From a virus, in UHGV virus genome UHGV-0253784: DNA of 15,162 nt. One strand, given 5' to 3'. Position numbers and translations under genes: made by a program. Below, piece by piece: positions 337 through 13,063 of this stretch (positions are counted from its first letter, which is position 1; each line of letters opens with the position of its first letter). The notes beneath the pieces were generated by a model. It was not told the origin of the DNA and made no database searches. It saw only the letters and a program-made list of their open reading frames with translations.

Positions 337-410
337 TTTACTGGGTCGGACTTCTGGCCCTTTACTGCATGTACAAGTGGTTCGGGTCGAACAACCGTCC
401 TAAACACTGA
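318..410 (+). CDS. Small hydrophobic peptide, 30 aa (MDTIHVIYWVGLLALYCMYKWFGSNNRPKH); possible gene 6.3 analogue
   Basis: ATG at 318 is preceded by a strong Shine-Dalgarno AAGGAGG (304-310). It overlaps the last 19 nt of the upstream gene. It has one hydrophobic stretch long enough for a membrane helix. Below the size cut-off of the ORF track; hand-translated. Confidence 0.35.
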   Translation: MDTIHVIYWVGLLALYCMYKWFGSNNRPKH

Positions 411-462
411 GGCTAGCCGATAGTCATATCCTATCAATCCAACAGCCATCCATATGTGAAAC

Positions 463-485
463 ACTAAACTATCACTATAGGGACT
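463..485 (+). promoter_or_regulatory. Phage RNA polymerase promoter, phi6.5-like position (-17 to +6, +1 G at 480)
   Basis: ACTAAACTATCACTATAGGGACT; positions -8 to +4 TCACTATAGGGA are identical to the T7 class III promoter core. It sits between gene 6 and gene 6.5 as in T7. Confidence 0.8.
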
Positions 486-546
486 TTAGGACCTAAGATA
501 TGACTATAAGATAGACTTTAGTCTTAACTTAAAGAGGAGATTCAAG

Positions 547-4671: not shown

Positions 4672-4694
4672 ACTAAACTATCACTATAGGGAGA
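4672..4694 (+). promoter_or_regulatory. Phage RNA polymerase promoter, phi10-like position (+1 G at 4689)
   Basis: ACTAAACTATCACTATAGGGAGA; 17 consecutive bases match the T7 consensus from -8 to +6 plus shared upstream bases. Immediately after the scaffold stop. Confidence 0.85.
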
Positions 4695-4796
4695 CCAAGA
4701 GACAGACTCAAGGTTTCCCTATTACTTCAGTCCATACGGATTGGGCATACAGTAAGTAATAAACTTTATCTTTCAATTGAATAGGAGAATTATCAT
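4689..4796 (+). promoter_or_regulatory. Gene 10 5' leader: stem-loop at the transcript start, epsilon-like enhancer and Shine-Dalgarno
   Basis: GGGAGACC (4689-4696) can pair with GGTTTCCC (4712-4719) with one G-U pair, as in the T7 gene 10 leader hairpin. TAAACTTTA around 4759-4768 resembles the T7 epsilon enhancer TTAACTTTA. AGGAGA at 4783-4788 lies 8 nt before the ATG. Confidence 0.5.
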
Positions 4797-6037: not shown

Positions 6038-6604
6038 ATGGCTCAATACATTCCACTGAATGCTAACGATGACTTAGACGCCATCAACGATATGTTAGCT
6101 GCTATAGGTGAACCAGCAGTCCTACAGCTTGACGAGGGGAACGCTGACGTCTCGAACGCTCAACGTATCCTGCATCGTGTCAATCGTCAGGTCCAAGCTA
6201 AAGGCTGGAACTTTAACATCAACGAAGCTGCTGTCCTGACACCTGATATCCAAGACAATAGGATTCGATTCTTGCCATCATACCTTCGTGTAATGACCGC
6301 TGGGGCCACCAGCTACTACAGCAATATGGGTGGATACCTGTACGACCTATCCACTCAGTCAACCACTTTCACCGACCCTATCACGGTAGAGCTTGTGGAG
6401 ATGAAGCCATTCTCCGAGATGCCTGTGGTCTTCAGGGACTACATCGTCACTAAAGCTAGCCGTGAGTTCAACGCTAAGTTCTTCGGTAGCCCAGAGTCAG
6501 AGCTATACCTTCGTGAGCAGGAAGCAGAACTCTATCAGCAAGTTATGGAATACGAGATGGACACTGGTCGCTACAACATGATGTCTGACATTGGGAGGGA
6601 CTAA
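6038..6604 (+). CDS. Tail tubular protein A, gp11-like (188 aa)
   Basis: Matches T7 gp11 as recalled (AIGEPxV, NAxRIL, GWxFNI, YIVTKASRxFN, MEYEMD). Shine-Dalgarno GAGAGGAGA upstream. Confidence 0.95.
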   Translation: MAQYIPLNANDDLDAINDMLAAIGEPAVLQLDEGNADVSNAQRILHRVNRQVQAKGWNFNINEAAVLTPDIQDNRIRFLPSYLRVMTAGATSYYSNMGGYLYDLSTQSTTFTDPITVELVEMKPFSEMPVVFRDYIVTKASREFNAKFFGSPESELYLREQEAELYQQVMEYEMDTGRYNMMSDIGRD

Positions 6605-6831
6605 TGGCTAGTCACAACCTGAAGATTCACCGCCAGCACTTTGGTCCGGTACAGCTAGGTCTAAAGACAGCAGAGCTGAGACTTAACGACCGGGACTTTA
6701 AGGTTGGCGATTGGCTTATCCTGAATGAGTGGGACAACGGATACACTGGACAACAGGTAGCTCGTAAGGTTGTCCACATTGCTGACGTTGGTGACATCGC
6801 TGAAGGATACGTCCTAATGAGTATGATTTAA
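6604..6831 (+). CDS. Small DUF3850/ASCH-like (PUA-fold) protein (75 aa), inserted between the tail tubular genes
   Basis: TAATG stop-start overlap with gp11 and GGGAGGGA upstream. The pattern HNLKIHxxHFGPVxLGLKTAELRLNDRDFKVGDWLILNEW ... EGYVL fits the DUF3850 signature as I remember it. T7 has no gene here. Confidence 0.7.
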   Translation: MASHNLKIHRQHFGPVQLGLKTAELRLNDRDFKVGDWLILNEWDNGYTGQQVARKVVHIADVGDIAEGYVLMSMI

Positions 6832-6840
6832 GGAGGGCCT

Positions 6841-9198
6841 ATGCCACTAATTACTCAATCAATCAAAAATCTTAAAGGTGGCATTAGCCAGCAGCCTGAT
6901 ATACTGAGGTTCTCAGACCAAGGCGAGGCACAGGTTAACTGCTGGTCATCCGAGAGTGATGGCCTCCAGAAGAGACCACCTACAGTCTTCAAGCGACGTC
7001 TTAACATCGACGTTGGGAGTAACCCTAAGTTCCACCTGATTAACCGTGACGAGCATGAGCAGTATTACATCGTGTTCAATGGGTCAAACATTCAGGTAGT
7101 TGACTTGAGTGGTAATCAATACTTAGTGTCAGGTGAGGTAGACTACGTTAAGTCCTCCAACCCACGAGATGACATCCGTGTCGTTACCGTGGCAGACTAT
7201 ACGTTCGTCGTTAACCGTAAGGTTGTCGTCAGAGGTGGAAACGAGAAGTCACACTCTGGTTATAACCGCAAAGCACGAGCTTTAATTAACCTGCGTGGTG
7301 GACAGTACGGTCGAACCCTTAAGGTGGGAATCAACGGTGGCGTTAAGGTCTCGCATAAGCTACCAGCAGGTAATGATGCCGAGAATGACCCGCCTAAGGT
7401 GGACGCTCAAGCCATTGGTGCAGCTCTGAGAGACCTTCTTGTTCAGGCCTATCCTGACTTCACGTTCGACCTTGGGTCTGGATTCCTGCTAATCACAGCT
7501 CCTTCAGGGACTGACATTAACTCAGTTGAGACGGAGGATGGCTACGCTAACCAGCTAATAAGCCCAGTCCTAGACACTGTGCAGACAATCTCTAAACTAC
7601 CTCTTGCAGCTCCTAATGGGTATATCATTAAGATTCAAGGTGAGACAAACAGTAGCGCCGATGAATACTACGTGATGTATGACTCCAACACTAAGACGTG
7701 GAAGGAGACAGTGGAGCCGGGAGCTGTTACTGGGTTCGATGTCGCCACAATGCCACATGCTCTGGTCAGACAGTCTGATGGCTCCTTTGAGTTCAAGACT
7801 CTGGATTGGTCCAAGCGTGGTGCTGGTAACGATGACACAAACCCTATGCCTAGCTTCGTGGATTCTACGATTAACGATGTGTTCTTCTACAGGAACAGGC
7901 TAGGGTTCTTGTCAGGCGAGAACGTAATCATGAGCCGTTCAGCCAGCTACTTTGCGTTCTTCCCTAAGAGTGTGGCTACACTGAGTGATGATGATCCTAT
8001 TGATGTAGCTGTAAGTAACCCTCGTATCTCAATCCTTAAGTATGCCGTTCCGTTTAGCGAGCAGCTACTACTTTGGTCGGATGAGGTTCAGTTCGTGATG
8101 ACAAGCTCTGGGGTACTTACCTCGAAGTCTATCCAGCTTGATGTAGGCTCAGAGTTTGCCTTAGGTGATAATGCCAGACCGTTCGCTGTAGGACGCTCCG
8201 TCTTCTTCTCAGCTCCTCGTGGGTCATTCACCAGCATTAAGCGATACTTCGCTGTAGCTGATGTGTCTGATGTGAAGGATGCCGATGATACAACTGGTCA
8301 CGTACTGTCCTACATCCCTAACGGGGTGTTTGATGTTCAAGGTACAGGTACTGAGAACTACATCTGCGTCAACTCTACAGGTGCATACAACCGAATCTAC
8401 ATCTACAAGTTCTTGTTTAAGGACGGCGTACAGCTTCAAGCCTCTTGGTCACACTGGGAGTTCCCTAAAGATGATAAGATTCTGGCGTCTGCTTCTATTG
8501 GCTCTACCATGTTCATTGTTCGTCAGCACCAAGGCGGCGTTGACCTTGAGCACCTTAAGTTCATCAAGGAGGCAACTGACTTCCAGTCAGAGCCATATAG
8601 ACTGCACATTGACTCCAAGGTGTCTATGGTAATTCCAATTGGCTCATATAATGCTGACACCTATAAGACTACGGTTGACATTGGTGCTGCTTATGGTGGC
8701 AACGCTCCGTCTCCCGGTCGGTACTATCTGATTGACAGTCAGGGTGCTTATGTGGACCTTGGGGACTTGACCAGTATCTCTACTGTGGTTATCCTCAACG
8801 GCGATTGGTCAGGACGCACAGTGTTCATCGGACGGTCTTATCTGATGTCCTACAAGTTTTCACGGTTCCTGATTAAGATTGAAGACGATAGTGGTACTCA
8901 GTCTGAAGACACGGGTCGTCTACAGCTTCGTCGGGCTTGGGTAAACTACAAAGACACTGGCGCTCTGAGACTCATTGTCAGAAATGGTGAGCGGGAGTTC
9001 GTGAACACCTTTAACGGGTACACCCTTGGTCAGCAAACCATCGGGACTACAAACGTCGGTGACGGGCAGTATCGCTTCGCTATGAATGGTAACGCATTAA
9101 CCACGAGTCTAACCTTAGAGTCCGACTATCCTACCCCAGTGTCAATCGTTGGGTGTGGCTGGGAGGCGTCATACGCTAAGAAAGCTCGTTCCGTCTAA
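6841..9198 (+). CDS. Tail tubular protein B, gp12-like (785 aa)
   Basis: N-terminus MPLITQSIKNLKGGISQQPDILR is nearly identical to T7 gp12 as recalled, with many downstream blocks (HLINRDEHEQYY, FRNRLGFLSGEN, LKYAVPFSE, GRLQLRRAWVNY, IGCGWE). Confidence 0.95.
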   Translation: MPLITQSIKNLKGGISQQPDILRFSDQGEAQVNCWSSESDGLQKRPPTVFKRRLNIDVGSNPKFHLINRDEHEQYYIVFNGSNIQVVDLSGNQYLVSGEVDYVKSSNPRDDIRVVTVADYTFVVNRKVVVRGGNEKSHSGYNRKARALINLRGGQYGRTLKVGINGGVKVSHKLPAGNDAENDPPKVDAQAIGAALRDLLVQAYPDFTFDLGSGFLLITAPSGTDINSVETEDGYANQLISPVLDTVQTISKLPLAAPNGYIIKIQGETNSSADEYYVMYDSNTKTWKETVEPGAVTGFDVATMPHALVRQSDGSFEFKTLDWSKRGAGNDDTNPMPSFVDSTINDVFFYRNRLGFLSGENVIMSRSASYFAFFPKSVATLSDDDPIDVAVSNPRISILKYAVPFSEQLLLWSDEVQFVMTSSGVLTSKSIQLDVGSEFALGDNARPFAVGRSVFFSAPRGSFTSIKRYFAVADVSDVKDADDTTGHVLSYIPNGVFDVQGTGTENYICVNSTGAYNRIYIYKFLFKDGVQLQASWSHWEFPKDDKILASASIGSTMFIVRQHQGGVDLEHLKFIKEATDFQSEPYRLHIDSKVSMVIPIGSYNADTYKTTVDIGAAYGGNAPSPGRYYLIDSQGAYVDLGDLTSISTVVILNGDWSGRTVFIGRSYLMSYKFSRFLIKIEDDSGTQSEDTGRLQLRRAWVNYKDTGALRLIVRNGEREFVNTFNGYTLGQQTIGTTNVGDGQYRFAMNGNALTTSLTLESDYPTPVSIVGCGWEASYAKKARSV

Positions 9199-9205
9199 CT
9201 TATTG

Positions 9206-9255
9206 AAGGGCCTATAGATTTACCTTAACTATCACTATAGGGACTATAGGCCCTT
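9206..9255 (+). repeat. Perfect 12-bp inverted repeat bracketing the phi13-like promoter
   Basis: AAGGGCCTATAG (9206-9217) and its exact reverse complement CTATAGGCCCTT (9244-9255), with a 26-nt spacer holding the promoter core. Verified base by base. Confidence 0.6.
9223..9245 (+). promoter_or_regulatory. Phage RNA polymerase promoter, phi13-like position (+1 G at 9240)
   Basis: CCTTAACTATCACTATAGGGACT; shares the -12 to +4 core with the other promoters. Upstream of the gene 13-position ORF. Confidence 0.8.
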
Positions 9256-9274
9256 AAGGTTATAAGGAGACTTT

Positions 9275-9751
9275 ATGTATATTCGCAAGGCTACGGAACC
9301 GGATGTCCACTACTTTCTGTGGCATCTTTCAGCAGATGATGTTAATGAGTGCAAAGCAAACTATGGGTCAACCGTTGGTCTCTCTGAAAGACTGCTTAAG
9401 CACCTATCTCCGTCATCTGTGGTTTTAACGAACGGTGTAGGCGAAGTGTTTGCCTATGGTGGAAACCAAGGGGATAACGTATGGTTCTTGACTTCTGGTC
9501 TGGTCCACAAGCTGAGACCTAAAGAGAAGCGAGAGTTCATAAAGCGTATCTCTGAGTACAGGGACTTAATGTTAGACCAATACGGGACCATCTGGAACTA
9601 CGTGTGGTCAGGCAATAAGTCTCACATTAAATTCTTGAAGTTGCTTGGCGCTAAATTCCATGATGATTGGACTGTAAGCCCAGTAACTGGTGAGCGTTTT
9701 CAACTATTCACTATCTCTAAGGAGGACGTATGTGCGAGCCAATTAGCATAG
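9275..9751 (+). CDS. gp13-position internal virion/assembly protein (158 aa)
   Basis: Shine-Dalgarno AAGGAGA upstream. First gene after the phi13-like promoter and directly before gp14. Assignment by synteny; I did not recognise the sequence. Confidence 0.6.
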   Translation: MYIRKATEPDVHYFLWHLSADDVNECKANYGSTVGLSERLLKHLSPSSVVLTNGVGEVFAYGGNQGDNVWFLTSGLVHKLRPKEKREFIKRISEYRDLMLDQYGTIWNYVWSGNKSHIKFLKLLGAKFHDDWTVSPVTGERFQLFTISKEDVCASQLA

Positions 9752-12613: not shown

Positions 12614-13063
12614 ATGAAGAACGGGACAGCCAGTGAGAGACTGGCAGAACTGTCAGTAGCTGAAGAGTCTGGCTGTATCCGATTCACAGGCCACTTAGAC
12701 GGAGAAGGATACGGAAGGATAATGGTAGCTAGGGTTAAGTATATGGCACATCGTCTCTCCTACTCCCTAAATAATGGGCCAATACCAGATGGTTATGTTG
12801 TTAGGCATAAATGTGATAACCCATCATGCATAAATCCTGAACACCTTGAAGTAGGAACGCAGGCTGACAACATTGCAGATAAGGTTTCCAGAGGCCGACA
12901 GGCAAGAGGTAGTGGAGTAGGCAGAGCTATACTGACAGAGGAATCTGTTAGAGAAATACGCTCCAGCCCATTAAAAGTATCTGAGCTTTCCACCTTATAC
13001 GGGGTAAGCGTCGTTTCCATACGAAATATATTAAGGAGAAAGACATGGCAACACGTGGTGTAA
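12614..13063 (+). CDS. HNH-family homing-endonuclease-like protein (149 aa), inserted between genes 15 and 16
   Basis: HNH motif HKCDNPSCINPEHLEVGTQADN and a helix-turn-helix-like tail; paralogue of ORF 1705..2121. Visibly enriched in AGA, AGG and ATA codons compared with the neighbouring structural genes. Overlaps the gp16 start by 19 nt. Confidence 0.85.
   Translation: MKNGTASERLAELSVAEESGCIRFTGHLDGEGYGRIMVARVKYMAHRLSYSLNNGPIPDGYVVRHKCDNPSCINPEHLEVGTQADNIADKVSRGRQARGSGVGRAILTEESVREIRSSPLKVSELSTLYGVSVVSIRNILRRKTWQHVV

Follow-up and report, generated by a model that had tools for sequence, protein, structure and literature searches.

The perfect inverted repeat in the gap between genes 12 and 13 of the viral genome UHGV-0253784 is, with a probability that we put at roughly two in three, the Kayfunavirus counterpart of the R13 site of phages T7 and T3, laid out on the plan of an R6.5 hairpin and predicted to act as an RNase III processing and 3'-stabilizing element. 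A processing or 3'-stabilizing hairpin related to an RNase III site of T7 had been the leading idea of the original prediction, which was made by reading this sequence alone. Comparison with other phages now supports that idea, with cleavage standing as a prediction: T7 has a hairpin over its phi13 promoter, R13 is annotated in T3 and phiYeO3-12, and most genera of the subfamily carry hairpins at this place with compensatory changes and G·U pairs. The features discussed below are collected in Table 1, with positions numbered along the window, by which we mean the whole stretch of 15,162 nucleotides that was analysed.

Table 1. Promoter-enclosing hairpins of the window and the features around them
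Feature	Position	Strand	Basis and remarks
Second promoter-enclosing hairpin	410-517	+	Arms 410-433 and 494-517; perfect upper stem of 11 bp (AUAGUCAUAUC/GAUAUGACUAU) above a lower stem
Gene 12 (tail tubular protein B)	6841-9198	+	Open reading frame list; K1F-like phages have DNA of 97-98% identity annotated as tail tube or tail tubular protein B
Lower stem, 5' strand UAACUU	9196-9201	+	Centroid and MFE folds; pair probability 0.58-0.63 for five pairs, 0.25 for the sixth
5' arm of upper stem, AAGGGCCUAUAG	9206-9217	+	About -34 to -23, outside the annotated 23-nt promoter; on read-through transcripts only
Phage RNA polymerase promoter phi13	9223-9245	+	Same 23 nt annotated as promoter in the near-identical phage ASO2B; apical loop, last two bases overlapping the 3' arm
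Possible inner helix in the loop, CCUUA (9223-9227) with UAGGG (9238-9242)	9223-9242	+	MFE structures; absent from the centroid, low confidence
3' arm of upper stem, CUAUAGGCCCUU	9244-9255	+	+5 to +16 of the phi13 transcript
Lower stem, 3' strand AGGUUA	9257-9262	+	Predicted folds
Shine-Dalgarno AAGGAG of gene 13	9264-9269	+	Read from the sequence; 5 nt 5' of the ATG at 9275
Gene 13 (internal virion protein A)	9275-9751	+	phrog_308, E = 1.7e-44; K1F annotation

A phage promoter inside a hairpin between genes 12 and 13

The 701 bases around the inverted repeat are 97-98% identical to K1F-like phages, and on sequence grounds the source is a K1F-like phage of the T7 group, belonging to the genus Kayfunavirus and the subfamily Studiervirinae. 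Its genes stand in the order of K1F, in which gene 12 is followed by a gap of 76 nt, gene 13, and then genes 14 and 15. The TAA stop codon of gene 12 (9196-9198) sits inside the lower stem of the hairpin.

Two other reading frames of the window may be mentioned here. An HNH homing-endonuclease frame of 149 aa (12614-13063; phrog_6254, E = 9e-35) lies between genes 15 and 16, and since gene 16 of K1F begins 5 nt past gene 15, it looks like a homing-endonuclease insertion in this phage. A second frame, of 75 aa (6604-6831), lies between genes 11 and 12, and its match to phrog_986 ('RNA-binding protein') is confined to the middle of the profile (positions 95-171 of 253). K1F is without a counterpart of this frame, its gene 12 beginning at the stop of gene 11, and the frame may be a truncated insert.

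The two arms of the repeat, AAGGGCCTATAG and CTATAGGCCCTT, are 100% complementary over 12 bp and are separated by 26 nt, exactly as had been described, and the spacer holds a phage promoter. Its motif, ATCACTATAGGGA, is found at 9231-9243 with the start of transcription (+1) at G9240, and the same pattern has five matches in the window where 0.23 are expected. With +1 downstream of the 5' arm, a transcript that starts at 9240 carries the right arm only, again as first claimed. The first 8 nt of the 3' arm are a repeat of the promoter core (CACTATAGGG followed by ACTATAGGCCC). No other perfect inverted repeat of at least 10 bp with a loop of at most 60 nt occurs anywhere in the window. Length alone is nevertheless marginal against chance, as 4.2% of 500 window-wide dinucleotide shuffles produced perfectly paired arms of 12 bp or longer around a loop of 3-60 nt, and the significance of the repeat therefore rests on its placement and conservation. 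Rfam has no curated family for sites of this kind and returned no match, either at gathering thresholds on the whole window or in a permissive scan of 9100-9350.

A calculation of fold energy had been proposed as a check on the hairpin, and its outcome is favourable: the RNA from 9196 to 9262 is predicted to fold with -22.4 kcal/mol (z = -3.3), and none of 200 shuffles folds as well. The minimum free energy (MFE) structure consists of a 5-bp lower stem (UAACU/GGUUA), a 5x2 internal loop whose 3' side is A9256 and A9257, the 12-bp upper stem with pair probabilities of 0.71-1.0, and the 26-nt apical loop. Promoter positions -10 to +1 are unpaired in this fold, and pairing falls on +5 to +16. For RNA that starts at phi13, the predicted 5'-terminal hairpin is of 3 bp only.

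Other structures were considered and set aside. If the 5' arm pairs instead with the promoter core (7 bp), the energy is -6.6 kcal/mol, as against -18.4 kcal/mol, and the probability is 0. An intrinsic terminator was rejected because the stem is followed by AAGGUUAUAAGG, which has no U-run, and there is no terminator-like site in 9000-9400. The T7-type RNA polymerase terminator Tphi resembles the present element in that both are stable hairpins in late polycistronic RNA, but Tphi ends the operon, whereas the hairpin of the window surrounds a promoter and is without a U-run.

Likeness to the RNase III sites R13 and R6.5

R13 of T7 was reportedly placed by Dunn and Studier at nucleotide 27281, seven bases past the start of phi13 at 27274. 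In the T3 record, a stem-loop named 'RNase III recognition site R13' (25443-25480) contains 'T3 promoter phi13' (25457-25479), and the phiYeO3-12 record likewise has a 'putative RNase III site R13' around its own phi13. It is from these two phages that the curated annotation of R13 was taken, as the T7 RefSeq and V01146 records, in the form displayed, list phi13 and no R13. The hairpin at 9196-9262 and the R13 sites of T7, T3 and phiYeO3-12 (Dunn & Studier 1983; AJ318471, AJ251805) occupy the same gap between genes 12 and 13; all are hairpins of the sense strand that contain phi13, and both of their arms are present on read-through transcripts only. They differ in layout, since in T7 and T3 the promoter core (about -8 to +7) itself serves as the 3' arm of a stem with a small loop, whereas here the whole promoter lies in a 26-nt loop. 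They also differ in sequence, the arms AAGGGCCUAUAG/CUAUAGGCCCUU and UUCUCCCUGUGGUG/CACUAUAGGGAGAA sharing only CUAUAGG. Because the arms cannot be aligned with R13 of T7 or T3 beyond the promoter core, the relation is one of position and structure and not a demonstrable homology.

The layout has a closer parallel in R6.5. In T7, the predicted fold of R6.5 has a 10-bp upper stem (AAGGUCCCUA/UAGGGGCCUU), a 26-nt loop that is the phi6.5 promoter, a 4x5 internal loop and a 9-bp lower stem; the fold of R6.5 in T3 is alike and has in addition a small helix inside the loop. The T3 record places phi6.5 (17160-17182) within the R6.5 stem-loop (17135-17206), and R6.5 and R13 are the only RNase III stem-loops of that record that fully contain a phage promoter. 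Common to R6.5 and the hairpin of the window are an upper stem of 10-12 bp, a loop of about 24-26 nt with an entire late promoter, a 3' arm that begins from +5 to +7, and an asymmetric internal loop with a lower stem below it. Sites on the R6.5 plan have about 18-20 bp of stem in total. R6.5 stands after gene 6 rather than gene 12, and its lower stem is of 9 bp in T7 and T3 as compared with 5-6 bp here.

The window itself holds a second promoter enclosed in this manner (Table 1). The perfect 11-bp core of this repeat reads ATAGTCATATC/GATATGACTAT and surrounds a promoter at the phi6.5 position (471-483, +1 = 480), after the gene 6 exonuclease and before genes like 6.5 and 6.7; downstream of the promoter is GGGACTTTAGGACC, which is similar to the sequence after phi13. 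By analogy with T3, where R6.5 is annotated around phi6.5 at this place, the hairpin probably corresponds to R6.5. This helix at the phi6.5 position also occurs in K1F, where it lies beyond the 99th percentile of random genome positions. When the longest uninterrupted helix spanning each of the 11 promoter matches of K1F was compared with a control of 1500 random positions, only phi6.5 (11 bp, control fraction 0.009) and phi13 (12 bp, 0.001) stood out. K1F-type phages thus have promoter-enclosing hairpins at exactly the two late positions that have promoter-containing RNase III sites in T3 and T7. The same test on T7 ranked phi13 first, followed by phi6.5 and phi1.3, the last of which likewise has an RNase III site next to it. 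The RNAduplex energy between promoter flanks was dropped as a discriminator, random positions averaging -24 kcal/mol.

A different kind of hairpin was seen at the gene 10 promoter, where an imperfect stem-loop begins at -3 (4686-4722; arms ATAGGGAGACCAAGAG/CTCAAGGTTTCCCTAT of 16 nt, 81% complementary). By analogy with the phi10 leader of T7, it is the expected stem-loop of the 5' leader of the capsid mRNA.

The likeness to R13 and R6.5 bears directly on the first of the alternatives, that the hairpin forms on read-through RNA without being a substrate of RNase III and serves passively, either as a barrier to 3'-to-5' exonucleases once the RNA has been cut by other means or as an insulator that shields the gene 13 ribosome-binding site from pairing to upstream sequence. 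A stable and conserved 12-bp stem would suit such a role, and with 12 plus 5-6 bp in all, the helix is near the lower limit of length for substrates of E. coli RNase III. Promoters accompanied by RNase cleavage sites are described as common in T7 (PMC6938266). R13 of T7 is itself a weak RNase III site (PMC5592923, PMC6938266), and T7 is able to grow without RNase III (cited in PMC6938266). We nonetheless consider a passive element unlikely, since curated RNase III sites lie at the same position in T3 and phiYeO3-12 and since the plan, from the lower stem through the internal loop to the upper stem, agrees with that of the annotated R6.5 sites.

Conservation within and beyond Kayfunavirus

The 77-nt junction of genes 12 and 13 is present in 221 phage records, in 109 of them at an identity of at least 99%, and is 100% identical in K1F; a scan of metagenomes added 14 junction loci, mostly identical. 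For comparison of the arms, 43 junctions from IMG/VR, metagenomes and GenBank were reduced to 23 distinct sequences, and the 19 of Kayfunavirus type were aligned. Standard pairs fill 90% of the cells of both helices in these 19, and 86.5% of the cells of the lower stem are paired. The core of the 5' arm, GGCCTATAG, is invariant in 17 of them, and the 9-bp core of the stem (GGCCUAUAG/CUAUAGGCC) has undergone three single-base changes only: an A-to-G change that gives G·U, an A·C mismatch, and a mismatch at the pair closing the loop. Conservation does not extend to the outer end of the stem. A G-C pair at alignment columns 13/58 is found in only 7 of the 19 junctions, and the perfect 12-bp state is thus confined to the sub-lineage of K1F.

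Divergent relatives indicate how far the arms are maintained. In three of them (L025, L028 and L042), the junction is 87-97% identical while the flanking coding DNA is only 61-70% identical; for L042 the values are 97% against flanks of 65% and 69%, and for L025 93% against 66% and 69%. Three IMG/VR relatives (L020, L026 and L028) differ in the promoter specificity region within the loop and have unchanged arms. The differing specificity regions of these lineages are AAACTATTACACCCTCACTATAGGGA and AAATATTTAACACTCACTATAGGGA, and their occurrence inside the same arms implies switches of polymerase and promoter specificity in genomes that are otherwise like K1F. A junction more conserved than its flanks, together with arms that persist despite a changed promoter specificity, argues at the sequence level for constraint on the arms. 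The original prediction named as refuting signs a lack of conserved arms in related phages together with an absence of mapped transcript ends; the comparison that it called for finds the arms kept, and on that count it stands. No pair of the 19 junctions has changed on both sides (0 compensatory double changes), so covariation within the genus is uninformative for or against structure, and in principle the conservation of the arms within Kayfunavirus could be due to sequence rather than pairing.

It is on this last point that a second alternative draws, in which the 3' arm alone is functional, serving the promoter or the phi13 transcript as initially transcribed sequence or 5' structure, and complementarity is a by-product of the duplication of the CTATAG core. 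The 3' arm does begin at +5 and repeat the promoter core, in which CTATAG is palindromic, a similar sequence (GGGACTTTAGGACC) lies downstream of the promoter at the phi6.5 position, and compensatory changes are absent within the genus. Against it, the 5' arm is conserved as well as the 3' arm and lies upstream of the annotated 23-nt promoter, so that promoter function offers no obvious explanation of its conservation. The 5' hairpin predicted for RNA started at phi13, moreover, has just 3 bp, and in other genera pairing is kept with wholly different arm sequences. We give this possibility a low probability, below that of a passive hairpin.

Those other genera were compared by folding the gap between genes 12 and 13 in 16 named Studiervirinae and about 20 more relatives from IMG/VR. 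Nearly all of the gaps gave a strong hairpin overlapping the phi13 promoter. The T7 hairpin (UUCUCCCUGUGGUGG/UCACUAUAGGGAGAA) has a predicted energy of -27.2 kcal/mol (z = -4.4), and one such hairpin each was found in the representatives of Teetrevirus, Przondovirus, Berlinvirus, Ghunavirus, Jarilovirus and Pektosvirus, with arm sequences that differ. Dickeya phage Luksen has none over the promoter and instead has a GC-rich hairpin upstream of it. In Vibrio phage ICP3, gene 12 is followed by a thymidylate kinase gene, and the annotated promoter overlaps the end of gene 12.

When 20 representatives were aligned on the CACTA of the promoter (ICP3, with a different gene after gene 12, was left out), the promoter core (from -7 to -5, usually through +7) was paired with an upstream partner in the MFE structures of 15. 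The partner varies with the promoter base, giving AU, UA or GC at -1, GC or AU at +1, GC or CG at +2, and GC, CG or AU at +3, and U·G makes up about half of the pairs at -8, -4 and -2. These compensatory changes are seen on a promoter-anchored comparison of phylogenetically non-independent representatives and not on an alignment of homologous sequence. In 19 of 21 representatives, the sense strand gives a more stable fold than the antisense strand, and this bias and the G·U pairs together point to folding of the sense transcript as RNA and away from a DNA palindrome. Compared in this way, the Studiervirinae show a predicted hairpin over phi13 as a near-universal trait, the upstream arm of which tracks the evolution of the promoter.

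Kayfunavirus is the outlier in this comparison, with the core unpaired in the loop and the 3' arm at +5 to +16. Some IMG/VR relatives (L024, and L083/L084) may be intermediate in architecture between the T7 type and the K1F type. L024 has, like T7, a 5' arm (GTCCCCTAT) whose complement is the promoter itself, although its MFE fold takes another structure, and in L083 an inner stem on +1 to +6 is accompanied by an outer one beyond +6.

The strand asymmetry across genera also weighs on a third alternative, that the repeat acts as DNA, whether as a cruciform or protein-binding palindrome modulating the promoter, as the boundary of a mobile promoter cassette, or as a recombination joint. Because the repeat is perfect in this lineage, it does not by itself discriminate between DNA and RNA; a junction more conserved than its flanks is what a patch of recombination homology would give, and the loop varies between lineages while the arms stay. 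The hairpins of other genera, however, rely on G·U pairs and are more stable on the sense strand, and the differences in the loop are the promoter specificity region of each lineage. An arm of 12 bp with a spacer of 26 nt is, in addition, unfavourable for cruciform extrusion. The promoter cassette and the recombination joint had both been kept as hedges in the original prediction; with pairing that is strand-asymmetric and a loop that evolves with promoter specificity between persistent arms, neither finds support, and we regard a DNA-level role as very improbable. That the repeat is a functionless product of chance is hardly credible: 4.2% of shuffled windows do contain one of at least 12 bp, but this one brackets a promoter exactly within a 76-nt intergenic gap, is conserved in 221 records with equivalents across the subfamily, and has a similarly enclosed second promoter in the same window.

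Proposed processing and its meaning for K1F-type phages

If the repeat is the counterpart of R13, late transcripts that start upstream and read through gene 12 would carry both arms and fold the hairpin, which would form only on such transcripts, as they alone carry the 5' arm. By analogy with R6.5 of T7 and T3, host RNase III would then make a single cut at about 9256-9258, on the 3' side and close to the internal loop. The message of genes 8-12 would be left with a protective hairpin at its 3' end, and the message from gene 13 onward would be freed with a short leader 5' of its Shine-Dalgarno sequence (9264-9269), much like that of a transcript initiated at phi13. Transcripts from 9240, which lack the 5' arm, would escape processing. 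Cleavage by RNase III in this phage, the position of the cut and the stabilizing effect are all inferred; our search of the literature, in which the K1F genome paper was not included, found no transcript-end or cleavage data for Kayfunavirus.

A more speculative idea, which we think is improbable, concerns how the present layout arose. Kayfunaviruses may have rebuilt an ancestral R13 by duplicating the initiation region of the promoter (CACTATAGGG and ACTATAGGCCC), thereby decoupling the signals for transcription and processing. If this were true, the 3' arm would have moved off the promoter, and the core would have been freed from its double role as polymerase site and RNase III substrate. 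The specificity of polymerase and promoter could then change, as in L020, L026 and L028, with the processing signal untouched, and this would perhaps be why the genus tolerates switches of promoter specificity.

As a predicted counterpart of R13, the hairpin would add one more case to the RNase III processing hairpins that accompany promoters in T7-group phages, a class already known, and would not surprise a specialist. The site is unannotated in both GenBank records of K1F, and its recognition supplies a predicted processing site for K1F-type phages, which serve in phage therapy and engineering. Where the junction of genes 12 and 13 is refactored or receives a payload, both arms should be kept, as their loss or separation would probably alter the processing of the gene 12 and gene 13 mRNA. 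The comparison across genera opens no new question; it provides an example of an RNA processing signal that co-evolves with a DNA promoter.
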